Part shown: piece after piece, positions 3,511-56,680 of the stretch
How the letters are laid out: every line of letters starts with the position of its first letter
Position numbering within the stretch: position 1 is the first letter of the stretch
Translations under genes and position numbers: made by a program
From: Armatimonadota bacterium
Lineage (GTDB): Bacteria > Armatimonadota > SYMT01
Direction: 5' to 3'
Length of the DNA: 64,000 nt
Assembly (NCBI GenBank): GCA_041690135.1
Contig: JAWLHY010000001.1
Location: 1 to 64,000 of the forward strand
Notes under the pieces: model-generated
The model's database searches: none
What the model was told of the DNA's origin: nothing
What the model saw: the letters and a program-made list of their open reading frames with translations, nothing else

Positions 3511-3582
3511 GGCTGGCATGTCTCCCGGCGTAGTGTAACTTACCGCAACTGATTATTCCAGCACTCCTTTGCTATCATTTGG

Positions 3583-4715: not shown

Positions 4716-7700
4716 ATGGGACCGCTACGTGAACGGCCGCGCGTCCGGGCCGGGTTCGTACTTGCGCTGCTGCTTTGCCTGGGCTTGTTCTTGCCGCTGC
4801 AGGCGCCCGCGCAGACTTCGTCCGGTCCGGTTTTCAACCCGGCGACCGGCCACTGGTATGAGAGCGTTGGCGTGGTCGGCGGGATCACCTGGGCCGATGC
4901 GAAGGCGGCCGCCGAGAGCCGTTCCTACCAGGGGCGACAGGGCTATCTCGCCACACTGACCACCGCGGAAGAGAACCAGTGGCTAGGCGCCAACCTTCCC
5001 CTCGCCAAGCAGGGGAAGTACCTGCTGGGCGGCTTCCAGCCCGCGGGGAGCCCGGAGCCGGCGGGCGGGTGGCGCTGGGTTACGGACGAGCCCATGAACT
5101 ATATCCACTGGGATCAGGGCGAGCCGAATAACGTCCTGACCGCGGAGGAGGTTCTCGCGCTGGCGACCACCGGGCGCTGGAACGACGCACGCGGTTCCGA
5201 CCTGCACCCGGGCTATGTGGTGGAGTATGGCCTGACTCCCCCCACAGCCCAACTGATCACCTTTGCGCCGCCGGTCGATATCCCGATCTTCTTTCCGGCC
5301 GATCTCTCCGCCATCGATTTGGACCAGGACGGCCACCTGGATATCTGCGCCGCCTCCAACAACGACATTGCGATCCTATACGGCCGCGGGGACGGGACCT
5401 TTCAGAACCCCCTCTACCTGGGCCTGAACGCGTACATTGCCCAGACGATCGCGGCGGACGTGGACGGCGACGGCGACCTGGACATCATCGCGGCGGGCGC
5501 CACGACCGTCCACGTGGTGCGGCGCAACCTGCCGCGCACCTACGCCTTACCGGAGCGCTACGTGGTGGTCCCGAGCCGGGTGTATGGGGTTCACGCCCGC
5601 GACTTCAACGGCGACGGCCGTCCGGAGATCGCCGTGTCGAACCACGACGGTCACCGCCTGGTGATCCTTCCCAACCAGGGTAACGGCACCTACGGGACGC
5701 CCACCAGTTACAACGCCGGAAGCTTCCCCGGACGCATCACCAGCGCCGATTGGAATGGCGACGGGCGCGTGGACCTGGCCATGACGAACATCGTCAGCGG
5801 TACCGTCTCCCTGTATTACGGCAATGCGCAGGGCGGGTTCTCTTCCCAGGTGACGGTCAGCACCAACGGGCAGTACCCCACCCAACTCGTCACCACCGAT
5901 ATGAACGGGGACGGCATCCTCGACCTGGTCACCGGCAATACGTTCGGGCACACGGTGGCGATCCTCCGCGGAAACGGCAACGGCACGTTCCAGGCCGGAG
6001 TCACCTATCCGGGCAACACCTATCCCCACATCCTGGCGGCCGTCGACCTGGACAACGACGGGGACCCCGACATCGCCACACCCAACAACGGGACCAACTA
6101 CTTCACGGTGCTGCGAAACACCGCGGGAGTGCTGGGGGCACCGCTGGGCTTCACTTCCACCGGGAACAACACCCGCACCCTGGCCGCGGGCGACTTCAAC
6201 GAGGACGGGCGGATCGACATCGTCGTCGGCAACGAGTCCAGCTCGAGCCTGTCGCTGTTCCTCAACACCACGGCATTCCCGGCCCCAGTCGCCCCAGTCG
6301 GCCTGGTGAGCTGGTGGAGAGGGGAGGGGAACGCGCAAGACGCCACCGGCCGCAACCCGGGGCAACTGGCCAACGGGACGAACTTCGCCCCCGGCGTGGT
6401 GGGGCAAGCGTTCTCATTCGACGGGATCAACGACGGCATCAACCTGGGAGATCCGGACAGCCTGAAGCTGACCCAGTCGTTCACCTTCGCCGCCTGGATC
6501 TACGTTCAGTCGCTCCCGCCCGCCGGCTTCGGGCGCTTCATCCTGTTCCGCGGCGACAACCGGGGCGGGTTGGACCCGTACCAGTTCGTGGTGCAATCCA
6601 ACGGCAACCTCGCCGTGGGGATCAATTCGCTCTCCGCTTCGCACGGGCTTGCCACGCCGATCCAGACGGGGCGCTGGGTCCACGTGGCCGCCACGCTCGA
6701 TCATGCTTCCAACGCGCTGCGTCTCTATCTGGACGGACAGCAAGTCGCGCAGAGCACCACACCTACCCGTCCGTTCCGCAACCTGGACCCCACCCAGAGC
6801 CCGGGCGTGGGGATCGGCAACGTTCAGTCCGTACCGAACCCGTTCCACAACCACCCCTTCCATGGCCGGATCGACGAGCTCCAGGTGTACGACCGGGCGC
6901 TGACGGCCCCGGAGATCGCCGAGCTCGTGGGACCGGTGCCCTCCGCACCCCCCGCACCGGTCAACCTGCAGGCGACCCCGGTATCCGAGAGCGAGATCGA
7001 GCTTCTCTGGCAGGACAACAGCTCGAACGAAACGTCCTTCGAGGTGGAGCGCCGCACCGAGGCGACACCCTATGCCCCCATCGCGTCGCTGGGGGCCAAC
7101 ACCAACTTCTACAGCAGCGGCGGACTGAGTGCCGAAACGCGCTACTACTTCCGGGTCCGCGCCCGGAACGCATTCGGCGAGTCGGCCTACTCGAACGAAG
7201 CGGATGCCATTACCCTTGCACCGCCCCCGCCCCCGCCGCTTCCCGCCGCCCCGAGCGGGCTGGTTGCCACACCGGTCTCCAGCGCGGAGATCGACCTCAC
7301 CTGGCAGGACAACAGCACGACGGAGACGGCCTTCCTGATCGAGCGGAAGACCGGCTCGGATCCCTTCGCGCAAATCGCCTCCGTGGGCGCCAACCTCCGC
7401 TCATACCGCAGCAGCGGCCTGAACGCCAGTACCGGCTACGTCTACCGGGTGCGGGCGCGGAACGCCACAGGCGACTCCGCCTACTCGAACGAGGCAACCG
7501 GCCTTACATTCCCGCTGCCTCCCCCGGCTTTCGCGGCCGCGGCCGCCTCCGCCTCGCAGATCAACCTCACCTTGACCGACGGCAACAGCACGCCGGTCGG
7601 GCACCGGATCGAGCGCTCGGCCAATGGGGGCGCCACCTACGTGGAGGTCGCCGCGCTCCCGGCGGGCACAACGAGCCATGCCGACACGGGGCTGGATGCC

Positions 7701-9764
7701 GACCGGACGTATCACTACCGCGCGCGGGCCGTCAATGCCTCGGGTTTTTCGGTCTACTCTCCCGTCAGTAGCGCCCGGACCCTACCCACGCCGCCCGGAC
7801 GGCCGGAGAACCTGGCGGCCGCGTATCTCGCCGGCCTGGGAGTTCGCCTCACCTGGACGCCCGGTGCGGGCAGCACCCCGGCGGGGATCAAAGTCGAGCG
7901 CTCGGAAAACGCCGGGGGAACCTTCACCCAGATCGGCGTAACCGCGGGGACAGGGGTCCTCTTCGACGACACGACGGCACAGTTGGACCGTGTGTACCTG
8001 TACCGGGTGCGCGCCTACAACGACGGGGGCCACTCGCTGTTCACGCTGCCCGTTACGCTGACCACCCCGCCCGCGGCCCCGACCCAACTGGCGTTGACGG
8101 AAGTCACAGCGACCCGGATCACGCTGACCTGGCACGACAACAGCGGGACGGAATCGGGCTACCGGATCGAGCGGCGGGTGAACAACAACCCCTTCGGATT
8201 CCTGGTGCAGGTGGGGGCGAACGCCCAGACGTACGCCGACAACTCGGTATCCGGCAACGCCACCTACACTTATCGGGTCCGTGCCCTGGGCCCCGGCGGC
8301 GAATCTCCCTGGTCGAACGAGGCCGGCGCCCTGGCCGCTCCCGCCCCGCCGGTGGCGGTGAGTGCGACCGCCCTCTCCAGCCACACGGTGAAGATCGAGT
8401 GGACGGACAGCAACCCGAGCTTCGTGCAGCATAAGCTGGAACGCTCCACGGATGGGGGAGTCACGTTCAGCCAGGTGACCGTGCTGAACCCGGGCGTTGC
8501 GGAGTACCAGGACACCGGTCGGGGTGCCAACACTCCCTACCACTATCGTTTGCGCGCGTCCAACGCCTCCGGCGATTCCCAATATTCCCCCACCGTTTCC
8601 GCCCTGACCTACCCCGTGGCGGCGGCCAACCTGGTGGTCATGCCGGTCTCCGCGTCGCGGCTCGACCTCCAGTGGACGGACGGCAATCCCCGTTCCTGCG
8701 CGCACCGCATCCAGCGATCGACCGATGGCGGCAACACTTTCACGACACTGGCGACCCGACCCGCGGGAACGACCACCTACGCGGACGAGAGCTGCCAGCC
8801 CAACTCCACTTACCGCTACCGCGTAGCGGCGGAGAACGCCTCGGCCGTTTCGGCCTACACGGCCACAGTCCAGGGCCTTACGCGCCCAGCGGCACCGGCG
8901 GACTTCACGGCGGCCGGCATCTCGCAGACGCGCATCCGCCTGCAGTGGAGCGATACCAACCCCACGCCCGTGGCACATCAGGTCGAGCAGTCCCTGGACG
9001 GGGGCGGCGCCTTCTCCTTGCTGGCAACCGTACCCGCCGGCACTACCACGTACGAAGTGGAAGTCGCCAACCCGGCGATCACCTACGTGTACCAGGTCCG
9101 GGCCATCAACGCCAGTGGCCCCTCACCGTTCGCCGGCCCGGTGAGCGCAGCCGTGCTCCCGGCGCCTCCCGCCGCACCGACCGGATTGATCGCCCGCGCC
9201 ATCACGCCCGACCAGATCGAAGTGCTCTGGGGAGACCAGAGCGCCAACGAGACCGGGTTCGAACTGGAACGGCGCACGCCGACCGGTGCCTTCACACTCC
9301 TGGCCTCGCTCGCCGCCAACACCACCCGGTACCTCGACACCGACCTGGGTGTGGAAACCACCTATATCTACCGCCTGCGCGCCGTCAACGCGGGAGGCGC
9401 TTCCGCGTACACCTCCGAGGTCCTGGTGGAACGTCCGCAGGGTGGGAAGCTGGTGGTTGCCCCGGCAAAGGTGAACTTCGGCACCCACCGCATCCGGAGG
9501 GGCGGGCCCCGGCCGGTCCGCCGCATCGTCACCCTGCGGAACACCGGTCGCGGTAGCCTGGGCGTGAGCATCGGTTCGCTCGGCGCGCCGTTCCAGATCA
9601 CCGCCGGGAGCGGCAGTTACACTCTGGGACCGCGCAAAAGCCTGAAGGTCCGGGTTGAGTTCACGCCGACAACGTCCGGCACCTATTCGGCCGTGCTGAG
9701 CGTGACCTCCACCGACCCGGCGAAGAGCAGCGTGCAGGTGCCGGTGAGCGCTCGCGTAAGGTAA
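4716..9764 (+). CDS. Large secreted adhesin-like protein: C-type lectin, FG-GAP repeats, LamG, nine FN3 repeats, C-terminal Ig-like (choice-of-anchor D/ASH-like) domain
   Basis: Signal peptide; WDQGEPNN..WND lectin motif; repeated D-x-N/D-G-D-G-x-x-D; FHGRIDELQVYDRAL; nine LxW-D...YxYRVRA repeats. Confidence 0.88.
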   Translation: MGPLRERPRVRAGFVLALLLCLGLFLPLQAPAQTSSGPVFNPATGHWYESVGVVGGITWADAKAAAESRSYQGRQGYLATLTTAEENQWLGANLPLAKQGKYLLGGFQPAGSPEPAGGWRWVTDEPMNYIHWDQGEPNNVLTAEEVLALATTGRWNDARGSDLHPGYVVEYGLTPPTAQLITFAPPVDIPIFFPADLSAIDLDQDGHLDICAASNNDIAILYGRGDGTFQNPLYLGLNAYIAQTIAADVDGDGDLDIIAAGATTVHVVRRNLPRTYALPERYVVVPSRVYGVHARDFNGDGRPEIAVSNHDGHRLVILPNQGNGTYGTPTSYNAGSFPGRITSADWNGDGRVDLAMTNIVSGTVSLYYGNAQGGFSSQVTVSTNGQYPTQLVTTDMNGDGILDLVTGNTFGHTVAILRGNGNGTFQAGVTYPGNTYPHILAAVDLDNDGDPDIATPNNGTNYFTVLRNTAGVLGAPLGFTSTGNNTRTLAAGDFNEDGRIDIVVGNESSSSLSLFLNTTAFPAPVAPVGLVSWWRGEGNAQDATGRNPGQLANGTNFAPGVVGQAFSFDGINDGINLGDPDSLKLTQSFTFAAWIYVQSLPPAGFGRFILFRGDNRGGLDPYQFVVQSNGNLAVGINSLSASHGLATPIQTGRWVHVAATLDHASNALRLYLDGQQVAQSTTPTRPFRNLDPTQSPGVGIGNVQSVPNPFHNHPFHGRIDELQVYDRALTAPEIAELVGPVPSAPPAPVNLQATPVSESEIELLWQDNSSNETSFEVERRTEATPYAPIASLGANTNFYSSGGLSAETRYYFRVRARNAFGESAYSNEADAITLAPPPPPPLPAAPSGLVATPVSSAEIDLTWQDNSTTETAFLIERKTGSDPFAQIASVGANLRSYRSSGLNASTGYVYRVRARNATGDSAYSNEATGLTFPLPPPAFAAAAASASQINLTLTDGNSTPVGHRIERSANGGATYVEVAALPAGTTSHADTGLDADRTYHYRARAVNASGFSVYSPVSSARTLPTPPGRPENLAAAYLAGLGVRLTWTPGAGSTPAGIKVERSENAGGTFTQIGVTAGTGVLFDDTTAQLDRVYLYRVRAYNDGGHSLFTLPVTLTTPPAAPTQLALTEVTATRITLTWHDNSGTESGYRIERRVNNNPFGFLVQVGANAQTYADNSVSGNATYTYRVRALGPGGESPWSNEAGALAAPAPPVAVSATALSSHTVKIEWTDSNPSFVQHKLERSTDGGVTFSQVTVLNPGVAEYQDTGRGANTPYHYRLRASNASGDSQYSPTVSALTYPVAAANLVVMPVSASRLDLQWTDGNPRSCAHRIQRSTDGGNTFTTLATRPAGTTTYADESCQPNSTYRYRVAAENASAVSAYTATVQGLTRPAAPADFTAAGISQTRIRLQWSDTNPTPVAHQVEQSLDGGGAFSLLATVPAGTTTYEVEVANPAITYVYQVRAINASGPSPFAGPVSAAVLPAPPAAPTGLIARAITPDQIEVLWGDQSANETGFELERRTPTGAFTLLASLAANTTRYLDTDLGVETTYIYRLRAVNAGGASAYTSEVLVERPQGGKLVVAPAKVNFGTHRIRRGGPRPVRRIVTLRNTGRGSLGVSIGSLGAPFQITAGSGSYTLGPRKSLKVRVEFTPTTSGTYSAVLSVTSTDPAKSSVQVPVSARVR

Positions 9765-12621: not shown

Positions 12622-14166
12622 TCAGGCCAGGAGGTCCCGCATCACGTCGTGGGTTTCCACGAGGGGAAGGGGGCGCTGCTGCGGGTCCAAGATCATCATG
12701 TGCGGATCGATCCCCAGGAGGTGGTAGATCGTGCAGAGCACTTCCTTCGGCGACACGGGCCGCTCGTCCGGGTAGCCGGCGTGCTCGTCCGTCTTGCCGA
12801 TCACCGCGCCTTCCCGGATGCCGGCGCCGGCGAACAGGTTGCAGTAGGCGTGCGACCAGTGCCCCCGGCCCCCGCCGCCCTGCGGGCCCTGGCCATCGAC
12901 TCCCGCATCCATCTTGGGGGTCCGGCCGTGCTCGCACATCACGCAGACCAGCGTCTCGTCCAGCATGCCGCGGTCGTCAAGGTCCTGCATCAGGGCGGAA
13001 AAAGCGCGGTCGAAGCCGGGGCAAAGCTCCGTCTTCAGGCGCTTCTCCAGGAAAACGTGGGTGTCCCAGGCGGAGTTGCCCAGGTTGTACTCGTCCCAGA
13101 AGACGGTCACCACCCGGGCGCCCGCTTCCAGCAGCCGCCGCCCGGCCAGGGTCGCCTGCCCGAACAGGGTCATCCCGTAGGCCTCGCGAGTCTTCATGGA
13201 TTCCGACTGGATATCCATCGCGCCGCGGAGCTTGTCGGAGGTCAGGAGATTCAACGCCAGCTGGCGCGAGCGGTCCCACGCGCGGACCTCGTCCATCTCG
13301 TCGAGTGCGGCGCGCTGGCTGTCGAACTGGCTGAGAATCGATTGGCGGCGGCTGAGGCGGTCCAGCGTGATGTCTCGCGACTGCCGCCCCGGTGAGAAAG
13401 TGAAGCGGGTTTCGGGAGTAATTCCCCCATAAGGGTTCTCCCGCCCCTGGCCATAGGGATCCTCGCCGGTGGACTTACCTTCCCAACTGGACACCACGGG
13501 CGCCCAGCCGGTACCGAGCCAGTGGGGCTGCGGGCCGGGACGGCGGAAGGTGTGGGGCAGCACCAGGTTCGTGGGAATCGTTTTCTCCGGCAGCCCCGCC
13601 CGGCGCCGGTGCATCGTATCCACGTAGTCCACCACGGAACCGAAGTAAGGCCAGTGCCGCGGGTCCCGGGTGTTCACTTCCCGGGCCAGGTCGGTGGTCC
13701 CCATCCCGGTGAGGGTGAAGGAGACCCCGTGGATCGGGTACTCATGGGTCATGGTCCGCACGGTCGCCACCCGGTGCATCCACTTCGCCATGCGGGGCAG
13801 GTGCTCGCTGATCTCGATGCTGGAGTTGGACGTGCGGATCGGCTTGAAGGGACCGCGAACCTCTTCGGGAGCGTTGGGCTTCATGTCCCACGTCTCGAGC
13901 TGGGACGGAGAACCGTAAAGGAAGAGGATGATGACGTTCTTCGCCTTGCCGAAGGTGGAGCCGCCCCCGGCCGGTTTTCCACCTGGGTTTCCATCCAGCT
14001 TTCCGGCGCCGAGCGGGGCGGCCTGCACCGCCTGGGCGTTTTGCAGGGCGAAGATGTCTCCCAGGGTCAGGCCGAAAAGCGACAGGGCGCCGGCCTGAAT
14101 CAGGTCGCGGCGGGCCACGCCGTCGCACAGCTTCTTGTTGTTCCCCAGGATCCGCAGTACCGACAT
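12622..14166 (-). CDS. DUF1501 domain protein
   Basis: RRDLIQAG leader, PSQLETWDMKP, RRLLEAG, WDTH, EHGRTPK, GRGHW. Confidence 0.9.
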   Translation of the reverse strand: MSVLRILGNNKKLCDGVARRDLIQAGALSLFGLTLGDIFALQNAQAVQAAPLGAGKLDGNPGGKPAGGGSTFGKAKNVIILFLYGSPSQLETWDMKPNAPEEVRGPFKPIRTSNSSIEISEHLPRMAKWMHRVATVRTMTHEYPIHGVSFTLTGMGTTDLAREVNTRDPRHWPYFGSVVDYVDTMHRRRAGLPEKTIPTNLVLPHTFRRPGPQPHWLGTGWAPVVSSWEGKSTGEDPYGQGRENPYGGITPETRFTFSPGRQSRDITLDRLSRRQSILSQFDSQRAALDEMDEVRAWDRSRQLALNLLTSDKLRGAMDIQSESMKTREAYGMTLFGQATLAGRRLLEAGARVVTVFWDEYNLGNSAWDTHVFLEKRLKTELCPGFDRAFSALMQDLDDRGMLDETLVCVMCEHGRTPKMDAGVDGQGPQGGGGRGHWSHAYCNLFAGAGIREGAVIGKTDEHAGYPDERPVSPKEVLCTIYHLLGIDPHMMILDPQQRPLPLVETHDVMRDLLA

Positions 14167-14281
14167 GCTTGCTCCCCGGCACGCAGCTCCGCGCGCCCAC
14201 TTCACTAAGAGTCCATTTATCCCCGTGAGTTACGTCGTGAAAGGCAACGAGGGCACCCTCAACAGTATTCCAACCCGGGCC

Positions 14282-25522: not shown

Positions 25523-27301
25523 TTACTCGGCTTCTTCCTCTTCCGGGACGATCTCCAGGTGCAGTTCGGTGAGCTGGGCGGGATCGAGCTCGGCGGGGCA
25601 GTCGAGCATCAGGTCAAAGCCGCTGGCGGTCTTGGGGAAGGCCATCACGTCGCGGATGGTCTCTTCGTTGGCCATCAACTGGACCATCCGGTCCACCCCC
25701 GCGGCCATGCCGCCGTGGGGTGGGGCGCCGTAGGAGAGCGCGTTCAGCAGGAAGCCAAAGCGCTCCCACGCCTGCTCGCGAGTGATGCCGATCAGCTCCA
25801 GAATCTTGAGCTGGAGATCCGGGTCGTGGACACGGATGCTTCCGCTCGCCAGCTCAACGCCATTGACCACCAGGTCGTAGACGGAGCCCGCCACTGCCGT
25901 GGGATCCGTGTCCAGCCGGGCGACATCCTCCGGCGTCTTCGGCTGGCTGAAGGGGTGATGGCTGGGCTCCAACCCGCCTTCTTCATTCCGTTCCAGGAGG
26001 GGGAAATCCAGAACCCAGAGGAAGTTCCAGGCGCTGGGGTCCGCCGCCAGGCCCAGGGTTTCGCCCAGGTGGAGCCGCAGGCGGTTCAAGGCTTCCGCGA
26101 CGACCTTCGGCTTGTCCGCCACGATGAGCACCAGGTCCCCGTCCTTCGCTCCCATGCGCTCGCGGATCTGCGCAACCTGCTCGCCCGTGAGATAGCGCTG
26201 GATGCTGGACCGGTACTCGCCGTTCTCCAGGATGATCGAGACCAGGCCACCCGCGCCGAAACGACGCGTGAGGGCGGTCAGGTCGTCGATCTGCTTGCGG
26301 CTGTACCCCCCGCAGCCGGGCGCCACGATCCCTTTGATCTGCCCGCCGCTCTCCAGCGCGTTCTGGAAGACGCGGAGGTCGCTCTGGGCAAGCACGTCGG
26401 CGAGATCGATCAACTCCATGCCGAACCGGGTGTCCGGCTTGTCGCAGCCATAGCGCGCCATGGCCTCTGCATAACTCATCCGTGGGAAGGGGGTCGGCAC
26501 GTCCAGACCCAGGCCCACTTTCCAGAGTTTTGCGATCAGGCGCTCCACCAGGTCGAAGACGTCTTCCTGGGTGACGAACGACATCTCCAGGTCGATCTGG
26601 GTGAACTCGGGCTGGCGGTCCGCGCGGGAGGATTCGTCCCGGAAACAGCGGGCGATCTGGAAATACTTCTCCACGCCGCTCACCTGCAGCATCTGTTTGA
26701 AAAGCTGCGGGCTCTGCGGGAGCGCGTAGAACTTCCCGGCGTAATTGCGGGCGGGGACCACGAAGTCGCGGGCCCCTTCCGGCGTGCTGCGGATCAGGCA
26801 GGGGGTCTCGATCTCCCAGAACCCTTCGGTGTCCAGGAAGTCCCGGCACGCCTTCACCACCCGGTGGCGCAGCTCCAGGTTCTCCTGCATCTTCTGGCGC
26901 CGCAGGTCGAGGTAGCGGTACTGCAGCCGGATCTCCTCGGCGATGCGCTCGTCCGTGATGAGGAACGGAGGGGTCTTCGAGCTGTTGAGAATCTCGACCG
27001 AGGCCCCCCGGACCTCTACCTCGCCCGTGGCCAACTTCGGGTTCTCGGTGCCTTCGGGACGGTGGCGCACGACCCCGGTCACCGAGATCACGAACTCGCC
27101 CCGGCAGCGGTCGGCTACTGCATGCGATTCAGGATGCTCGCTGGAGTCGAAAACGACCTGGACCAGACCGCTGCGGTCCCAGAGGTCGATGAAGATGACG
27201 CCTCCCTGATCGCGGCGGCGCCGGACCCAGCCGGCAAGGGTAACGGTCTGACCGATCTGAGCGGCGCGCAGCGTTCCCGCGCCGTGAGTACGTATAGGCA
27301 T
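25523..27301 (-). CDS. aspS: Aspartate--tRNA ligase
   Basis: GWVRRRRDQGG, RLQYRYLDLR, STPEGARDF, YALPQSPQLFKQ, CFRDE..RADRQPEFTQID, GAPPHGG. Confidence 0.98.
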   Translation of the reverse strand: MPIRTHGAGTLRAAQIGQTVTLAGWVRRRRDQGGVIFIDLWDRSGLVQVVFDSSEHPESHAVADRCRGEFVISVTGVVRHRPEGTENPKLATGEVEVRGASVEILNSSKTPPFLITDERIAEEIRLQYRYLDLRRQKMQENLELRHRVVKACRDFLDTEGFWEIETPCLIRSTPEGARDFVVPARNYAGKFYALPQSPQLFKQMLQVSGVEKYFQIARCFRDESSRADRQPEFTQIDLEMSFVTQEDVFDLVERLIAKLWKVGLGLDVPTPFPRMSYAEAMARYGCDKPDTRFGMELIDLADVLAQSDLRVFQNALESGGQIKGIVAPGCGGYSRKQIDDLTALTRRFGAGGLVSIILENGEYRSSIQRYLTGEQVAQIRERMGAKDGDLVLIVADKPKVVAEALNRLRLHLGETLGLAADPSAWNFLWVLDFPLLERNEEGGLEPSHHPFSQPKTPEDVARLDTDPTAVAGSVYDLVVNGVELASGSIRVHDPDLQLKILELIGITREQAWERFGFLLNALSYGAPPHGGMAAGVDRMVQLMANEETIRDVMAFPKTASGFDLMLDCPAELDPAQLTELHLEIVPEEEEAE

Positions 27302-27688
27302 AAATCGGAATCCTGACGGAATGATCCCCGGCTCCGGTGCGGTTACTCCAGAAGGCGCGCGGGCCTGGGGATGGGGCTGAAATCGGTGCGAGGCCCGGTC
27401 TCGGATGATCGCCCGTACGAGCGCGACCGTAGGCCGGGGAGAGACGACACGCTACGCCCGGCGCCATCTTCTCCCGGAATGGGAAGACCGCGCCGGGCTA
27501 GAGGTTGACGTCCTTGGCCGCTCGGGGGGCGGCTTCGGGACCTCGCGCGCCTCTCGACACACAAAGCCCCAGGGTGGGAAGAAGGGGAGACATCCTCGCG
27601 CCTGATCGGTCACCGCCCGGACACCGAGTCCCGGCGGGCCTGCTGATTCTAACGCAATCGCCTCCAGAAAGAAAGGCGGGCAGACACG

Positions 27689-27722
27689 AAAAAAGAGCGG
27701 TTCCGGATCAGCCGGAACCGCT
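27689..27722 (-). terminator. Intrinsic terminator
   Basis: agcggttccgg-ctgat-ccggaaccgct-ctttttt on minus strand. Confidence 0.85.
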
Positions 27723-27757
27723 GTGCAATGAAAGGAGTGTCAGCAACCGAAACGCAT
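27689..27757 (-). ncRNA. Candidate small RNA with anti-Shine-Dalgarno loop and intrinsic terminator
   Basis: Downstream of a sigma28-type promoter; tgctga-CACTCCTT-tca(tt)gca hairpin; 11-bp terminator stem followed by ctttttt; no credible ORF. Confidence 0.55.
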
Positions 27758-27762
27758 ACCCA

Positions 27763-27788
27763 TTATCGGCAGCCGGCGAAAAACTTTA
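27763..27788 (-). promoter_or_regulatory. Sigma28 (FliA/SigD)-type promoter
   Basis: TAAAGTTT-N10-GCCGATAA; consensus is TAAAGTTT-N11-GCCGATAA. Confidence 0.7.
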
Positions 27789-27853
27789 GGGCGGGTTGCC
27801 CGAATTCCGCCGAACGTGGGACAGGCGACCTACCGGAGTAGGGCAAGCAGGCT

Positions 27854-28678
27854 TCACAACACGTGCATCAGTTTGTGCATCTGCGGGATGAGGCGCACCT
27901 CGCGCACGTACTCGCTGGCCATCGCATGCCAGTAAAGCATCCGATCCATCTCCGGAGCCGAAGTCACGGGGCCGAAGGGGGTAACGGGTTGAAGCGTCAG
28001 GCTGGCCCCCGGCGCCTCTTCGGCCGCCAACCGGAATGCCGCCCGTAACTCCCGCTCGTCCGCCTCGCTCCCCACGATCAACTTGAGAAAGGTGTGCGGA
28101 GCCCCGGGTTGCCCCGGACGAGCCACGCGCAGGAAACGCCGGTGCCGCTCCAGCCAATCCGGGCAAGGATCGCCCGTGCACGACGGCGGTTTGAGGTCCA
28201 TGGCGATCCAGTCGACCTGGTCCACCACGCGCTCCAGGTGGTCCGGCAACAAGCCATTGGTCTCCAGGTAGGCGCGCAGTCCGGAGGCGTGGAGCTCCGG
28301 AAGGAACTGCTCCAGGAAGCGAGCGTGCAAGAGGGGCTCGCCACCCGTGAGGCTGACGGAGTGGTGCGGCACCCGCGCCAGGTGCTGAACGGCATCCAGC
28401 ACCGCTTCCAGGCCGGCGGGATTCGGGAGGGGGCGGAAATCCGCGCGGCCGGGCGTCTGCTCGACCCGGCCGGGGAGCAGCGCGCCGGGGGGAGCTGTGA
28501 GGGTCTCCGGGCTATCGCACCAGGTGCAGCGGAGGTTGCAGCCGAAGAACCGCAGGAAGATCTGCCGCACCCCGATGAGTTCGGCCTCTCCCTGGATACT
28601 ACTGAATACCTCGACTACCCGCGCCCGCGGGGCAGCTCCGGTAGCCCTCGCGAGCGATTCTGTCTCTGCTTCCACCAT
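27854..28678 (-). CDS. queE: 7-carboxy-7-deazaguanine synthase (radical SAM)
   Basis: EVFSSIQGE, FLRFFGCNLRCTWCDS, SLTGGEPL, YLETNG, RLIPQMHK. Confidence 0.88.
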   Translation of the reverse strand: MVEAETESLARATGAAPRARVVEVFSSIQGEAELIGVRQIFLRFFGCNLRCTWCDSPETLTAPPGALLPGRVEQTPGRADFRPLPNPAGLEAVLDAVQHLARVPHHSVSLTGGEPLLHARFLEQFLPELHASGLRAYLETNGLLPDHLERVVDQVDWIAMDLKPPSCTGDPCPDWLERHRRFLRVARPGQPGAPHTFLKLIVGSEADERELRAAFRLAAEEAPGASLTLQPVTPFGPVTSAPEMDRMLYWHAMASEYVREVRLIPQMHKLMHVL

Positions 28679-28751
28679 CTCCGTGTGCCTGTCCTCGACC
28701 TATGCTCTATCACAGACACTTTACCTCCGGGCAGCGCCCACGAAAAGCAGA

Positions 28752-28778
28752 AGCCCTCCGAACCGATGTCCGGAGGGC
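28752..28778 (-). terminator. Probable terminator hairpin after the prepilin gene
   Basis: gccctccg...cggagggc with T-rich tail on the minus strand. Confidence 0.55.
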
Positions 28779-28807
28779 CTGACAGCACAGTCACAGGGGG
28801 CTTTGCA

Positions 28808-29503
28808 TCAAGGGTTGCATCGGCTTACGGGGATGTCGGCCCACTGGACCGGATAACCGCCACATCCCGCCGGGTTGCCGTAGAAGCCGACATGGGTAGG
28901 CCACCACTCCTGGGGCCGCTCACTGCGGCTCTTGCGCGCCTTTACGTGCCCGTCACCGAACAGGAAGTTGCCGGTTTCGCTGTGGCGGTGACAGAGACGG
29001 ATGGCATTCTGACAGGTGTCGTTCCAGATACTTGTCGCGTCCATTGCCAGGAACAGGTCGGCCGGAGCCTGGATATTCGCCAGGGCCTGCCCCGCCAGGA
29101 AAGCACTGAACCCATAGGCATTACTCTGAATCTGGACGTAAGTCTGGCCCGCTGCGGGAGGGGTGCCGGGCGTCAACGCGCCCGGCGGCACGCTGGGGCA
29201 GCGAAACACCTGCGTGTTTTTGACGTAGGGATAGATGTTGTGCGCCATGGTGCGCTGGTGCGCCGGCTGGAAGGGATTGCCGGACGCCCCGTCCCACGGA
29301 TTGAACGGCATCACTTCGTCATAATCCTGGGTGTACATCAGGACGGCATTGCCGACCTGTTTCAGGTTGCTCTGGCAACTCGACTTTCGAGCCGCCTCCC
29401 GAGCCTGGGCGAATACAGGAAAAAGGATCGCTGCGAGGATGGCAATGATCGCTATCACTACGAGCAACTCGATCAGCGTAAATCCCGACCTCATGCGCTT
29501 CAT
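28808..29503 (-). CDS. DUF1559-type prepilin N-terminal cleavage/methylation protein with H-X9-DG motif
   Basis: [43 protein letters not shown]; [15 protein letters not shown]. Confidence 0.92.
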
Positions 29504-29716
29504 TGGGGTGGTACTTTCTGCGATGTTGTTCGAACCGGCGCCAATGCCGGTTGGTTGCTTCTGGGCCGACGCCCAAGTGTAAAAGTTTGCCTCGACATCG
29601 CTACAGACCTTCAACCACTTTCATAGCTCGAGCGCAATTTTTCCTAAAGACAGAATTACACACCTTAATACATGCCATCGCATATCCGCATGGAAACTGG
29701 TTCCCGTAGTACGCAG

Positions 29717-29762
29717 AAAGGGAGTAGCCCACCGGAGGGGTTCCGGTGGGCTACTCCCTTTC
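29717..29762. terminator. Intrinsic terminator between the tandem prepilin genes
   Basis: gaaagggagtagcccaccgga-ggggt-tccggtgggctactccctttc. Confidence 0.85.
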
Positions 29763-29789: not shown

Positions 29790-30467
29790 TTATCGCGGGT
29801 TGCAGGCGTTCACCGGAATCGCCGCCCACTGCACCGGGTATCCACCACAGCCGGAAGACGTTCCGTAGAAGCCTGTAAGCGTCGGCCACCACTCCTGGGG
29901 TCGCTCGCTGCGGCTCTTCCGTGCCTTCACGTGCCCGTCGGCATAGGCGAAGTTGCCGACCTCACTGTGCCGATGGCACAGGCGAATAGCGTTCTGGCAG
30001 CCGTCGTTCCAGGGGTTCTGCGCGTCGAATGCCATAAACAGATCAGCGGGCGCTTCGACCTGCGCCATGGCCCGGCCCGCGATCCAGTTGCTGAATCCAT
30101 ATGAGCCATAGGGGATCTGTACCCAGGTGGCTCCGGCGGACCCGGGGGTCATCGAAGTTCCGGCCACACTCGGGCAGCGGAAGACCTGTTGGTTCTTCAC
30201 ATACGGATAGATCAGGTGTGCGGCGGTTCTCTGATGGGTCGGCTGAAAGGGACTCGTACCGGAGTCCCAAATATTCATGACCATGACCTCATCGTAGTCC
30301 TGCGCATACATGAGCATCCCGGTGGAGATTTGTTTCAGATTGCTCTGGCAACTGGATTTACGAGCCGCTTCCCGAGCCTTCGCAAAGACCGGAAAGAGGA
30401 TCGCCGCCAGGATGGCGATGATAGCTATGACAACAAGTAGCTCAATGAGAGTGAAAGCACGCTTCAT
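29790..30467 (-). CDS. DUF1559-type prepilin protein (tandem paralog)
   Basis: [30 protein letters not shown]; [15 protein letters not shown]; C-terminus nearly identical to neighbour. Confidence 0.92.
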
Positions 30468-30670
30468 TGCAACTCCTACCCTCTCGGTGGGTGTGTTAGC
30501 AGGGGCTTCGACAGGTGACGGTTCCAGCCCGGTGGTTCCGCCAACCAGCCTTATCCCTTGAATTACACGGGTTGCTAGCTCTCTCACCTAAGCGATGTGC
30601 GTGCTATCACATCAAAAGACTCTTCTTTGAAGCCTTTGGGCGACTCTGCGAATTTCTTAAGTGGTCAATC

Positions 30671-36509: not shown

Positions 36510-37598
36510 ATGGCGGACGATCCACCCAATTCGGGATCCCCACATTCGGGTCGGCCCAGCCGGGAGGTCATCCGGGAGTTCACGGACCGCGGTGTCCTCT
36601 GGCTCCTGGAGGACCCGACCAACACCGGCGAGCTGCTGCGCATCATCGAACCGGAGTTAGCGGCGCATCTGGACTTTCGACGGGCGCAGCGAGTCAATCG
36701 AAGCCTGATCCCCGCGGACTTGCAAAAGCGGGAAAGCGATCTGATCTTTTCCGTGCCCTATCGGGAGCCCTCCCCGAACGGTGAGGAGGTGATCTGGATC
36801 TATTTACTGCTGGAGCACCAGTCCAAGCGGGACCCCGAAATGGCCCTGCGGATCCTGAGCTACATGGTGCAACTCTGGGAGCTTCAGCGCCGAGCCTGGA
36901 CAGACCAGCGGACTCCACGGCGAGAGCGCCGCCTTCATCCCGTAATCCCGCTGGTGTTCTACACGGGCGAACCCGCCTGGAAGGGACCCATTACCCTCGC
37001 GGATCTGATGCGCCTCCCGCCGGAACTCCAGAGGTTCGTCCCTGCCTGGGAGACGCTGGCGCTGAACCTGAAGAGAACGGAACCGGAGGATCTGGTCCGC
37101 TTCGCTTCCGCCGTAGGCTGGGCACTGCGGGTCCTGCAGGAAGAGCGAACTTCTTTCGAGCGCTTCGAGAGCGTGGTCCGCCAATCGCTCGGCCAACTGG
37201 AACGCTTGACAGAGGAGCAGACCGGACAGTGGATTCGGGCGGTGTGGTTTATACTGCTTACGGGTTTCCACCGGCGAGAACACGACGAGTATAATACTCT
37301 TGAATCAGAAATTCGAGCCTGGGCGGCTCAATCCAAGTTCTTCAACCAGGAAGAGGTCGAGGTTATGGCACTTACCATGGCACAGGAAGTTGAGGCTCGT
37401 GGCGAGGCTCGTGGCGAGGCTCGTGGCGAGGCCCGAGCTGTTCAGAGGCTCTTGATCCGCCTGCTTGAAAGTCGTTTCGGAGCATTGCCGTTGCCGGTTC
37501 GAACCGCCATCAGTGATGCGGAGACGGCGGACCTCAATGCTTGGTATGAGCGGGCACTGCAAGCCGCAAGTCTCGAGGAAGTTGGGATCCTGCACTGA
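36510..37598 (+). CDS. Rpn family recombination-promoting nuclease/putative transposase (YhgA-like)
   Basis: RESDLIFSV, IYLLLEHQS, PVIPLVFYTG, (EARG)x3 linker, RLLESRFG.LP C-terminal domain. Confidence 0.9.
   Translation: MADDPPNSGSPHSGRPSREVIREFTDRGVLWLLEDPTNTGELLRIIEPELAAHLDFRRAQRVNRSLIPADLQKRESDLIFSVPYREPSPNGEEVIWIYLLLEHQSKRDPEMALRILSYMVQLWELQRRAWTDQRTPRRERRLHPVIPLVFYTGEPAWKGPITLADLMRLPPELQRFVPAWETLALNLKRTEPEDLVRFASAVGWALRVLQEERTSFERFESVVRQSLGQLERLTEEQTGQWIRAVWFILLTGFHRREHDEYNTLESEIRAWAAQSKFFNQEEVEVMALTMAQEVEARGEARGEARGEARAVQRLLIRLLESRFGALPLPVRTAISDAETADLNAWYERALQAASLEEVGILH
37365..37598 (+). CDS. Possible in-frame internal small protein (RpnS-type antitoxin), 77 aa
   Basis: aagaggtcgagg precedes ATG 37365 (MALTMAQEVEARG...). 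Confidence 0.5.
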   Translation: MALTMAQEVEARGEARGEARGEARAVQRLLIRLLESRFGALPLPVRTAISDAETADLNAWYERALQAASLEEVGILH

Positions 37599-37702: not shown

Positions 37703-38986
37703 TCAGCCGACCAACTCTGGGATCGGCGAGGCGTCGTGGATCAGCGGTATGGGACGGGCCTGCTGATCCATGAAGACCGCCTCCGGATCGATGCCCAGCG
37801 CGTGATAGAGGGTGGCCACTACCTCGCGGACGCGGTATGGCTTGTCCTTTGCCTCGTGCGCGTCCGGGGTGGTGGAACCGATGGCCTGGCCCATCTTCAG
37901 GCCGCCTCCCGCGATCAGCACCGACATCACGGCGGGCCAGTGGTCGCGCCCGGCGGTGCCGTTGACGCGCGGCGTGCGGCCGAACTCACCCCACACCACA
38001 ATCAGCGTATCCTGCTCCCGGCCCCGGTCCTTCAGGTCGTCCATCAGGGCCGTCAGGCTCTGGTCGAGCGGCGGCATGATATTCCGGAGCTGCTTGAAGT
38101 TATCGCTGTGCGTATCCCAACCGCCGACCTCGATGGCGACGCACTGCACCCCGGCCTCGATCAAGCGGCGCGCCCGCAGGAAATGCTCGTAGGGGTAGCG
38201 CTTGCGGGTCTTCTCATCTTCCCTGGAGATGTCGAGCGCCGTGTAGGTCGCGCTGGAGCTGACCAGCTCGAGTGCCCGCTGCGCGAAGACGCTCTGGGCC
38301 TCGACCGCACCACTCTCCACCGTCGCACGAAACCGGTTGACCTTGTCCAGCAGCTTACGCCGGCCGTTCAGGCGGTCCGTGCTCACCTGCAGGCGTAGAT
38401 CCTCGCGGCCCGGCCCCTCGTAGACATACGGCTCGGTCTGCGTGCCCAGGTGTGCCCCTCCCAGGCCGGTTTCGTAGTTGTAGCCCCGCAGGCTGACATA
38501 GGGAGGCACCAGGGACTCCGGTTTTCCCCGCAGCCGCGCCAGCACGGAGCCGATACACGGCTTGTCTCCCTGGGCGCGACGCTCCGTGAAGCCGTAACCG
38601 GTGCACATCAACGAGGAGGCATGCTCCTCCGGCAGCACCCGGTGGACGGAGCGCAGCACGGCCAGGCGGTCCATCCGCTGCGCTTGGAGGGGGAACAGCT
38701 CGCACATCTGTACCCCGGGCACGTTGGTGTCGATCGCCTTGAACTCGCCGCGGATCTCGACCGGCGCTTCCGGTTTGGGGTCGTAAGTATCCACGTGGGA
38801 GGGCCCTCCACCCAGGTGGATCATCACGATCGAAGTGGCCTTACCCCGTGCAGGCGCCGCTTCGGCGCGGAGCTGCAGCAGGTTCGGGAGGGAAAGACCG
38901 GCGATACCGAGTGTGCCGATCCGGAGCGCGTCGCGCCGGGTAACTCCACGGCACAACCGGTAGGACTGCCCTTGAAGGGTGATCAC
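37703..38986 (-). CDS. DUF1501 domain protein
   Basis: TRRDALRIG, GGPSHVDTYDPKP, ARRLIEAGV, GWDTH, GEFGRTP, GRDHW. Confidence 0.92.
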   Translation of the reverse strand: MITLQGQSYRLCRGVTRRDALRIGTLGIAGLSLPNLLQLRAEAAPARGKATSIVMIHLGGGPSHVDTYDPKPEAPVEIRGEFKAIDTNVPGVQMCELFPLQAQRMDRLAVLRSVHRVLPEEHASSLMCTGYGFTERRAQGDKPCIGSVLARLRGKPESLVPPYVSLRGYNYETGLGGAHLGTQTEPYVYEGPGREDLRLQVSTDRLNGRRKLLDKVNRFRATVESGAVEAQSVFAQRALELVSSSATYTALDISREDEKTRKRYPYEHFLRARRLIEAGVQCVAIEVGGWDTHSDNFKQLRNIMPPLDQSLTALMDDLKDRGREQDTLIVVWGEFGRTPRVNGTAGRDHWPAVMSVLIAGGGLKMGQAIGSTTPDAHEAKDKPYRVREVVATLYHALGIDPEAVFMDQQARPIPLIHDASPIPELVG

Positions 38987-39795: not shown

Positions 39796-40392
39796 ATGGC
39801 TGCGCCTTTGCGGAGTGAAGCAGAAGTCCATCGCCTGGTGAACGAGAACCGAAGACTCGTGGAATACATGGTCAACCGCTATCTGAAGCGGTACCACGTG
39901 GGTACGATGGAGCGTGACGACCTGGTGTCGTGGGGGATGATGGGCCTGATCAACGCGGCCCGCGCCTTCGACCCGAGCCGGAACGTTGCCTTCTCCACGC
40001 TGGCGTGTCGCGCCATCGAGCGGATGATCATCCGCGGCGTCAACCGCGAGTGGCATCCCGATCGGGAGCAGGTGACGGTGAGCCTCGACGAACTGATCCA
40101 CGGCGCCAACGGTGAGGGCGGAGACGACCGTTTCATCGACCAGTTGCCGGCGGACGAGAACGTTGAGAAGACGATGCTCCATACGGAGCAGGGGAGCGTC
40201 ATTGACGATGCTCTGAACACCCTCACGCCGGAACAGCGCGAGTTGATCGTCCGGCACTTTTTCGAGGGAGAGAGCGTGCAGGACATCGCGCGCAGCATGG
40301 GCATGAGCCGCCAGGGCGTCTATTCGCGCCAGAAGGCCATCTTCAAGCGGCTGCGGGAGACCCTGGACGACTCGCTGGCAATGGCTGCCTGA
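39796..40392 (+). CDS. Alternative sigma-70 family factor (FliA/SigB-like regions 2 and 4)
   Basis: DDLVSWGMMGLINAARAFDPSRNVAFSTLA; SLD; LTPEQRELI..DIARSMGMSRQGV. Confidence 0.9.
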   Translation: MAAPLRSEAEVHRLVNENRRLVEYMVNRYLKRYHVGTMERDDLVSWGMMGLINAARAFDPSRNVAFSTLACRAIERMIIRGVNREWHPDREQVTVSLDELIHGANGEGGDDRFIDQLPADENVEKTMLHTEQGSVIDDALNTLTPEQRELIVRHFFEGESVQDIARSMGMSRQGVYSRQKAIFKRLRETLDDSLAMAA

Positions 40393-49296: not shown

Positions 49297-51396
49297 CTAG
49301 GGTCCAACCAGCGTTGCCGCCGGATCTCCATAGAGCGTGTATGCCAGCCAGGTCGGGTCCCCCGGTTCGGACTGGATCGCCTGCCGGGCCTGGCGCAGCG
49401 CCTCTCCCAGGTTCTCACCGTCGAGCAGGGCCTGGTAAAAGTGCCCCGCAAACTCGGCCGCCGTGGTGTCCCGCACCTCCCAAAGCGAGCCGACGAACGC
49501 GCCGGCTCCCTGCGAGAGGAAGCCGTTCGCCCATCCCGCCAGTCGCGTGTAGTTGGCCGCCTGCCCGTCCGAGCGACAGGCGTTCATGAACACCAGCGGC
49601 ACCTGCTTCCGGAGACTGCGCTGCATGGAGGCCAGCAGCGCCGGTGTAAACGGCGATGGCCCAAAGGCCACGTGGGAAGCGGTGGGGTTCTGCGGCTGAA
49701 AAGTGTTGTGGCAGGCGAAGTGCAGCAGGTCGAAGTCCGCCGCCTCCAGCCGGTCGAGCAACTCGTCCAGGTCGTCCACGGGAGTGGTGGCGGGAACCCC
49801 CAGCAGCTCGCGAAGCGCCTGGATCTCGGCGTCGGCGCTGGCGGGAGACCCGGCCGGTCGGACGAAAACGGGAGCAGCGCGGTGAAGCTCGGCTACCGGC
49901 GGCGTGCGTCCCTGCCAGCGCGCGATGGGAAACTGCTCGACCAGGAAACCTCGGTCCTGCGGCTCGTCCCCCTCGGGTGCGGTGGGGTAGAGGATTTCCC
50001 AGGGGATGGGGTCCCCATCGGCCTGGATGATCAGCCGGCGGATGTCGGCATGGCGCTCCCAGAAGAGGCGCTGGAGATCGGCGGGGAACAACTCCTGCCA
50101 GAGCACAATGCCATGCCCCTTCAGCGCCCGGCGCGTGGTGGAGGCGGAGTACTGGAGGCGGTTGCGCGCCATCAGGTTGAACTGCGCCACCACATCTTCC
50201 ACGCATTTGTCGGGCGTCCGCCGGAGGCGGGCCGACTCCATCGGCTCGTAGAAGCCGATCGTGTCGTCGATGAACTGGTAGCGGTAGACCTGGTCCTCCT
50301 CATCGTACCGGATGAACAGGGTGACCTCCCCGGGCTGGCGCTGGCGCGGCGGCATGCCGGACCGACGGGCGACACTCGGGCCTGTCGCCGCCACCGGGTC
50401 CACGGTGACCTGCATCTGCAGGGCGCCCAGGAACATACCTCCCAGGAAAGCGGAGACCCTTACGTCGCACACACCCTGCTTCTCCGCGCGGAGACGGAAC
50501 AGTGCCGGGTCCGAGTCCTGTCCCGCCGGAACGTGGACGACTCGGGACGTTCCTTCCAGGGGAGCGAAACCCGGGCTCTGGAGCACCAGGCGGACGTCCT
50601 GATCCTCAAGAGAAACGCGGTCCCTCAGGGCAGCGGTGGAAGCCCCGGCGCCCCGCAAGAGGGAAACGGTTATCAACAACTCCGTCTCCTCGCCCAGGCG
50701 CACGCGCTCCGGCATTTCGCCGTTCAGGTAACGCGTCACCGGCGCCTCTGCTGTCCCGGCAGCCGCCGTGGTGTCTCCCGAGCGCACGGCCCGGGGACTA
50801 TCCCCGGCACTGCCATCGAGTTCAAAGGCGGTTTCTTCCCACCCTCCACGCACGGTTGGGGTCGTGGGCGCGCCCCAGCCCCCGGATCCGCTTCCGACTG
50901 CGTCACTCGTGCCCTCGCGAAATCCGAACCGCTCTTCTCCGAAATCATTCCCACCGGGTCGGAAAGACTCTTCCCGGGTCTCATCCATGCGCGGTTCCAT
51001 GCGCGGTACGGGTCGCTCGCCCCCGCCGTTCGCCATCGCCCGGCGATCTTCGCCCGGCCAGGTCGGCCGCGCCGGACCGGTGTCCAGTGTGGCCATCAGC
51101 CACGCCCGCAGGGTCGCCGGTGATACCTCCTCCAGTGGGGTCAGCGGGCCGCCTTCCAGACCGACAACGGCCCCTGCCGGAAAGCCGGTCTCCTTATCCA
51201 GAAGAATCTCGGCCACGGCGTCCGCATCTTGCAATCCCGCGTGGTGACCGCGCCGCAGGGTGAGGAACCATTGCACCCGTTTCACCGAGGGCTCCTCGTC
51301 TTTGCGAAGGTCAACATGCGATGCCAGGCGCTCGGCGAGCGCGGCACTCCGGTCTTTGGAAACCGCCGGGGAAACGAGAACAAGAGCGGCGGACAT
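49297..51396 (-). CDS. CHAT (caspase-like) protease with TCAD7-like beta-sandwich and unknown N-terminal domain
   Basis: IPWEILY, LLHFACH, LVFMNACRS dyad, GAFVGSLWEV.D, DPTWLAYTLYGDP; RYLNGEMPERV central domain. Confidence 0.88.
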   Translation of the reverse strand: MSAALVLVSPAVSKDRSAALAERLASHVDLRKDEEPSVKRVQWFLTLRRGHHAGLQDADAVAEILLDKETGFPAGAVVGLEGGPLTPLEEVSPATLRAWLMATLDTGPARPTWPGEDRRAMANGGGERPVPRMEPRMDETREESFRPGGNDFGEERFGFREGTSDAVGSGSGGWGAPTTPTVRGGWEETAFELDGSAGDSPRAVRSGDTTAAAGTAEAPVTRYLNGEMPERVRLGEETELLITVSLLRGAGASTAALRDRVSLEDQDVRLVLQSPGFAPLEGTSRVVHVPAGQDSDPALFRLRAEKQGVCDVRVSAFLGGMFLGALQMQVTVDPVAATGPSVARRSGMPPRQRQPGEVTLFIRYDEEDQVYRYQFIDDTIGFYEPMESARLRRTPDKCVEDVVAQFNLMARNRLQYSASTTRRALKGHGIVLWQELFPADLQRLFWERHADIRRLIIQADGDPIPWEILYPTAPEGDEPQDRGFLVEQFPIARWQGRTPPVAELHRAAPVFVRPAGSPASADAEIQALRELLGVPATTPVDDLDELLDRLEAADFDLLHFACHNTFQPQNPTASHVAFGPSPFTPALLASMQRSLRKQVPLVFMNACRSDGQAANYTRLAGWANGFLSQGAGAFVGSLWEVRDTTAAEFAGHFYQALLDGENLGEALRQARQAIQSEPGDPTWLAYTLYGDPAATLVGP

Positions 51397-51694
51397 GGGC
51401 TTTCCTCCGATCTCCTGCATGCGGGCAAGAAGGGGGGTGTCTATCGGGTTAACATTCGTAAACCGGGGTCATCCTTCCTTCAATGCGAGGTCCGGAAATC
51501 GCTCCATGGCTCGAGGCGTCCAAAACGCATGCAACTCCGCCCGGCGTACTCGGCTCATGACTTCCGGCCGCCTGCGCGACCTCCCGAAGTTGCCGCCGGA
51601 ACAACGCCGGATAGATAATTGCTCGGGGCCCGGGCCGGCGGTGCGCCGCTCAGTCGGCCGGCGACCGCCTTTCAAGTGGAGTGAGGAAGACCAG

Positions 51695-56393: not shown

Positions 56394-56680
56394 GGAAGGG
56401 GTCCCGACTCCGGTCTTCTTATCGGCGCCGCCACGCAAGTCCCGGCAGGAAGGATCGCCTCATTGGCTGTTGTGGCAAAGGGGTCGGCCAGCCTACACCA
56501 CTCAGTTCCCTGGCTCGTGGGGGACACCCTTCTGGGCTGTGTTCCCCACCCGTTAAGCTGGTGGAGACGGGCCGTGGCCGAATCTGTCGGATATTTGTCC
56601 TTCATGCCGTACCGCGCCGTGCTACTTTACTTCTGACACCGAATCTCTGGCGGATGGGAGATTGAGTTGGGATAGGAGGA

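Follow-up and report, generated by a model that had tools for sequence, protein, structure and literature searches.

RsaE/RoxS-type small RNAs (sRNAs) carry C- or CU-rich seeds that mask Shine–Dalgarno (SD) sequences. sRNA regulation that depends on sigma-28, the flagellar sigma factor, has so far been shown in Escherichia coli and in Campylobacter (PMC10578931, PMC11187230, PMC4626219). The E. coli sRNA UhpU, a short base-pairing RNA with a processed form of ~60 nt, has its own sigma-28 promoter, runs into the 3′ untranslated region (3′ UTR) of the metabolic, non-flagellar gene uhpT and can also arise from the uhpT mRNA (PMC10578931, PMC4183435). MotR, FliX and FlgO of E. coli and the FliA-dependent sRNAs of Campylobacter jejuni are timed by the flagellar sigma factor (PMC10578931, PMC11187230, PMC4626219). 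Consensus-grade FliA promoters that lie away from flagellar genes and are non-productive or lineage-specific have been described in E. coli and Salmonella (PMC4183435, 10.1101/188474).

We analyzed an element on the minus strand of a 64-kb stretch of Armatimonadota DNA (hereafter the window), for which a first-pass annotation had proposed a sigma-28-driven sRNA that blocks ribosome-binding sites. The observation underlying this proposal was confirmed, in that the promoter, the terminator, the arms of a hairpin and the missing open reading frame (ORF) are all present in the sequence. The sRNA interpretation itself held in part: the promoter, the terminator, the non-coding stretch and an accessible tract stood up to analysis, but a stable display hairpin and the consensus promoter spacing did not.

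The element resembles UhpU in having a sigma-28-type promoter of its own at the 3′ end of a metabolic gene that is not flagellar. The promoter of UhpU is placed inside the uhpT coding sequence, whereas that of the element lies past the stop codon of a QueE-like gene, and the primary UhpU RNA is ~260 nt, compared with a predicted 65–69 nt here. The two belong to different phyla, and the likeness is one of layout. MotR, FliX, FlgO and the C. jejuni sRNAs differ from the element, since they derive from flagellar-gene UTRs or from separate loci and several pair in coding regions; homology with them is not expected. With the RsaE/RoxS type the element would share a predicted single-stranded pyrimidine-rich tract complementary to a purine-rich ribosome-binding site, but it has one such tract, no stable loop and no Rfam family match. 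Finally, the non-productive or lineage-specific FliA promoters are mostly inside genes and have no dedicated terminator at sRNA distance, whereas the element is intergenic and has a strong terminator ~40 nt beyond its proposed seed tract.

The promoter is composed of the −35 octamer TAAAGTTT (27781–27788, minus strand) and the −10 octamer GCCGATAA (27763–27770, minus strand), each of which matches the sigma-28 (FliA/SigD/WhiG-type) consensus at 8 of 8 positions; the two boxes that had been called perfect are exact in 16 of 16 positions. The complete arrangement TAAAGTTT-N10-GCCGATAA runs from 27788 to 27763 and is present as a single exact copy in the window. Its spacer, TTCGCCGGCT, measures 10 nt, which is 1 nt short of the 11 nt in the E. 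coli consensus TAAAGTTT-n11-GCCGATAA as printed in PMC2859248, and the first-pass annotation had described the spacer in the same way. Rewritten in the TNAAG-N-GCC notation the spacing becomes N13, and chlamydial promoters with N14 and N15 spacing have been described (PMC3333780).

AT-rich octamers of the promoter type are rare in the window, the GC content of which is 65.8%. A composite pattern with spacers of 9–13 nt occurred once in the window and in none of 100 dinucleotide shuffles, and the number expected by chance from the base and dinucleotide composition of the window was 1e-6 to 9e-6 per 64 kb, or 1e-4 to 1.4e-3 per genome of 6–10 Mb with the five spacer lengths allowed. Because the site is single in the window, was never recovered from the shuffles and has such a small expected number, the match to a sigma-28-type promoter is far beyond chance. 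Relaxed scans of the window (N14, N15 and N16 spacing, up to two mismatches) yielded no additional site. The sole other copy of GCCGATAA in the window (56419–56426) has no TAAA or other −35 box upstream and was rejected as a second promoter for that reason. As indirect evidence, the exact match would point to a FliA-type sigma factor of classical specificity in this organism.

The intrinsic terminator is a stem-loop at 27696–27722 on the minus strand with 11 bp, 8 of them G-C pairs, a 5-nt loop and arms that are 100% complementary. The stem is directly followed by CTTTTTTCGT, which gives the combination of a GC-rich stem and a U-run (CTTTTTT); the 11-bp GC stem and U-tract of the first-pass annotation were recovered with their T6. 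The U-tract CTTTTTTC (27688–27695, minus strand), located by sequence reading and by a terminator scan, marks the predicted RNA end, and the T6 run within it (27689–27694) is one of only three in the window. Among 28 terminator-like sites in the 60 kb scanned, the site at 27722–27696 was the best formed, with its long perfect stem and the sole uninterrupted T6 tail. The three scans of these 60 kb returned 7, 9 and 12 terminator-like sites, compared with 10.6, 14.1 and 11.0 expected from shuffles. The terminator lies ~65–69 nt downstream of the promoter. No second terminator was found after the QueE-like stop codon, and transcripts of the QueE-like gene would end at the terminator of the element. 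Two other strong hairpins, at 29718–29760 (plus strand, 20 bp) and 28751–28780 (minus strand, 13 bp), flank tandem DUF1559 prepilin-like genes. Apart from these two and the terminator of the element, the scanned 60 kb contain no site with a long stem, and terminator-like sites there otherwise do not exceed the number in shuffles.

At the usual distance past the −10 element, the predicted transcription start zone falls at 27753–27757 on the minus strand, and an RNA from 27757–27753 to its end at 27689 would be 65–69 nt long. At 51.5% GC, the 99-nt element ranks among the 1.4% of equally long windows that are poorest in GC. Within the predicted transcript, no start codon has more than 6 codons behind it in frame. 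Four ORFs overlap the element, 27505–27789 and 27728–27841 on the plus strand and 27763–27846 and 27786–28181 on the minus strand; where tested they had no Pfam match at E ≤ 0.1, and GC3 in overlapping ORFs was 0.52–0.72, with 0.52–0.58 in the two of these four for which it was measured, versus 0.74–0.87 in the three real genes measured. A coding gene on either strand was rejected on these grounds, with the frames closed or without starts, no coding GC3 signature and no Pfam match, and the absence of a credible ORF, as first noted, was thereby upheld. A start at A27757 would create a leaderless frame of five codons (27740–27757, minus strand; AUG CGU UUC GGU UGC UGA), which is probably meaningless.

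The Infernal/Rfam search that had been suggested as a check was run with the covariance models of Rfam 15 on the whole window and gave no match at the gathering score. At E ≤ 10, five chance-level matches were obtained in the region 27200–27950, none of them on 27688–27788, and none of the RNA families described by these models matches the element. BLAST of the 106-nt element against phages returned no match, and against plasmids it returned only two chance matches of 35 nt, which fall on the terminator hairpin and come from Klebsiella plasmids.

The proposed seed is the CU-rich tract CACTCCTTTCA (27729–27739, minus strand), which is complementary to the SD-like sequence UGAAAGGAGUG and, with up to one mismatch allowed, occurs nowhere else in the window. 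Folding from three assumed start sites predicted a probability of being unpaired of 0.53–1.0 per base for CACUCCUUUCA, and the CACUCCUU tract was mostly unpaired by prediction and formed the sole extended single-stranded segment. The fold of the element had an energy of −23.8 kcal/mol (z = −2.42), with minimum-energy and centroid structures that consisted of the terminator and little or nothing more. The first-pass annotation had described a hairpin displaying the tract in its loop. The arms of this hairpin (6 bp, 2-nt bulge) exist and the tract is predicted to be accessible, but the hairpin is marginal, with only −0.9 kcal/mol alone and a contribution of 1.6 kcal/mol in context; a 5′ alternative hairpin has about the same energy in context, and the display hairpin is missing from the minimum-energy and centroid folds. 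On the predicted structures, the tract is accurately described as CU-rich, single-stranded and accessible, and not as a loop on display. On the plus strand the corresponding SD-like sequence is AAGGAGTG (27732–27739), and it had been stated to lack a properly spaced start codon. This was also found here, where no ATG, GTG or TTG lies 4–12 nt downstream of AAGGAGTG and the sole nearby ATG (27728) is upstream of it.

Possible targets were sought within the window. Three copies of AAGGAGTG were present versus 1.41 expected, which is chance level, and no perfect complement of the tract in the window was located at a start codon. AAAGGAGTG (3562–3570, minus strand), which complements the CU tract perfectly over 9 nt and is also at chance frequency, was found 42–50 nt upstream of the ATG of an aconitase-family (LeuC-like) gene, away from its ribosome-binding site and in the divergent region common to this gene and a LysR regulator; one of the three AAGGAGTG copies lies 43–50 nt upstream of this ATG. 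The energies calculated by RNAduplex for 45 predicted start regions, the start codons of which are uncurated, were dominated by long loop-rich duplexes. As a rough figure with these uncurated starts, GGAG, GAGG or AGGA occurred at positions −22 to −3 in 20 of the 45 genes.

Both neighboring genes are on the minus strand. The upstream gene (27854–28678) encodes a radical SAM protein with a match to Pfam Radical_SAM, stays below the cutoffs of the NCBIfam QueE models (best score 74 bits vs cutoff 206) and also resembles radical-SAM activases, whereas the downstream gene aspS (aspartate–tRNA ligase, 25523–27301) scored 806 bits vs a cutoff of 443. The gene names used in the first-pass annotation were consequently retained for aspS and weakened to QueE-like for queE. 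Between the terminator and aspS lies an unusually long GC-rich spacer of 386 nt (27302–27687, minus strand), and the fold of 27302–27689 is moderately structured (z = −2.48). No Rfam family was found in 27302–27687, and the T-box and aminoacyl-tRNA-synthetase leader models were unmatched there; the spacer may be an undescribed aspS leader. It contains a 16-nt inverted repeat (27456–27498), and a hairpin pairs GGAGG with CCUUU just past the terminator.

The 64-kb window contains no fliA and no flagellar gene. The only sigma factor encoded in it (39796–40392) is ECF-like and scored 56 bits, where the cutoff for FliA_WhiG is 189.6. Complete flagellar pathways are present in some Armatimonadetes, and Fimbriimonas ginsengisoli is contrasted with these flagellated members as not motile (PMC5629041, PMC7509429). 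For AspS, ~40 relatives were found at 73–83% identity, and all three of the named ones were Armatimonadota MAG proteins. Searching genome contigs with the QueE-like protein as the query retrieved two loci, neither of which carries GCCGATAA or CACTCCTT. In the first, L001 (JANPLG010000050.1, a 3.3-kb contig), the QueE-like gene at 1409–2281 encodes a protein 77% identical to that of the window, and the gene order differs, with a convergent gene following downstream after a 234-nt spacer. The QueE-like protein of the second locus is 39% identical and too distant to be informative. The contig of L001 is labeled as an ‘Actinomycetes bacterium’ MAG despite the 77% identity, which suggests a binning or labeling problem, or a transfer event.

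The best reading of these results, which we put forward tentatively and at somewhat less than an even chance, is a sigma-28-driven sRNA embedded in the 3′ region of the QueE-like gene in a UhpU-like layout. The element would then be a short transcription unit of its own within this region, where RNA polymerase with a sigma-28-type factor (FliA/SigD/WhiG family) would start ~7 nt past GCCGATAA and make an RNA of 65–69 nt ending at the terminator with its 11-bp stem and U6, at which the upstream mRNA would end too. The 5′ half of such an RNA would be weakly structured and would carry the CU-rich tract CACUCCUUUCA in accessible form, and the terminator hairpin would make up its 3′ part. It would most likely act in trans by pairing with AAGGAG-type ribosome-binding sites in a subset of mRNAs, and translation of the paired mRNAs would be lowered during activity of the flagellar or developmental sigma factor. 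Pairing in trans through the CU tract would be the most economical mechanism. From the sequence we infer that the promoter is used in vivo, where exactly the RNA begins, that it acts in trans, which mRNAs it targets and in which direction it regulates them. The sRNA reading is favored by the exact and unique promoter, the well-formed terminator, the low GC content and lack of coding potential of the element, the predicted unpaired tract, the documented parallel in E. coli and the existence of flagellated Armatimonadetes. It is weakened by the 10-nt spacer, by the absence of fliA from the window and of the element from L001, by the marginal hairpin and by the chance-level complements.

The main rival of this reading is an orphan promoter without function. 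According to it, a sigma-28-type promoter lies in the 3′ UTR of the QueE-like gene and is either silent or gives an unstable by-product, and the terminator serves the QueE-like gene, which needs one anyway because no other follows its stop codon. We consider this unlikely but deserving of serious weight. In E. coli, 30 of the 52 FliA sites are intragenic, and a link to RNA changes exists for only 5 of these 30 (PMC4183435). Non-canonical FliA promoters there mostly yield no stable or conserved RNA (PMC4183435, 10.1101/188474), and the promoters themselves generally lack conservation (10.1101/188474). The spacer that is 1 nt short and the absence of the element from the one useful relative retrieved, L001, agree with this view. 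Against it, a match at 16 of 16 positions is not expected by drift at 66% GC (at most 1.4e-3 per 10 Mb), and the promoter is in non-coding DNA, so that no overlapping codons hold the octamers in place. The promoter–terminator distance suits an sRNA, as does the lack of structure in the CU tract, and a sigma-28 promoter that is not conserved can still make a functional RNA, as is probably the case for UhpU (10.1101/188474).

Other accounts accept a transcript and assign it a different role. A real RNA that works otherwise than by blocking ribosome-binding sites, through pairing in coding regions, as a sponge or decoy, or by binding a protein, has a parallel in E. coli MotR and FliX, which pair within coding sequences (PMC10578931), and would agree with complements that are at chance level and a CU tract outside any stable loop. 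Nothing specific speaks against such a mode, but no extended segment other than the CU tract is single-stranded, and we judge this account improbable. Marginally less likely still is an additional aspS promoter timed by sigma-28, in which the 65-nt segment and terminator would form an attenuator and read-through would feed the long aspS leader. The position of aspS on the same strand, 386 nt past the terminator and behind the moderately structured leader, is compatible with this idea, as is a scan for sigma-70-like promoters that found no site in the 552-nt gap between the QueE-like gene and aspS; however, promoters of this phylum may simply escape a scan based on the hexamers of E. coli. Moreover, the terminator is strong (11 bp, U6) and present in every minimum-energy and centroid structure, the predicted folds contain no competing antiterminator, no T-box, aspS-leader or other cis-regulatory Rfam family matched at E ≤ 10, and none of the five codons in the 5′-terminal frame encodes Asp. 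A leader-peptide or T-box attenuator for aspS was rejected for want of a family match and of Asp codons.

The sRNA reading also has a global variant. The tract CACUCCUUUCA presumably resembles the pyrimidine-rich 3′ tail of 16S rRNA, and a sigma-28-timed RNA in which it is single-stranded could imitate this tail and compete with ribosomes for strong AAGGAG-type SD sites across many mRNAs during flagella building or differentiation. Translation would then be reallocated rather than repressed at a single target, and Armatimonadota would have their first described small regulatory RNA. We regard this variant as a long shot.

If the sRNA reading is real, sigma-28-dependent riboregulation extends past Proteobacteria and Campylobacterota, in a host from a barely studied and mostly uncultured phylum, and another flagellar sigma promoter is located behind a metabolic gene. 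Sigma-28-dependent sRNAs embedded in 3′ regions are already known as a kind, and an orphan promoter would be ordinary. A full-text literature search combining Armatimonadota and sRNA retrieved one paper, in which each word appears a single time.

Several other genes of the window were recorded alongside the element. DUF1559/N-methyl prepilin-like proteins and two DUF1501 proteins are encoded on the minus strand at 28808–29614, 29790–30587, 12622–14205 and 37703–38986, a gene content usually tied to Planctomycetes. An origin in that phylum was nevertheless rejected, given that the three named AspS matches at 73% identity or more all belong to Armatimonadota. A gene at 4716–9764 (plus strand) encodes a surface-type protein of 1682 aa with FG-GAP, fn3 and LamG domains, a CHAT-domain protein is encoded at 49297–51420 (minus strand) beside ORFs without a family, and a YhgA-like (Transposase_31) gene was found at 36510–37598 (plus strand).
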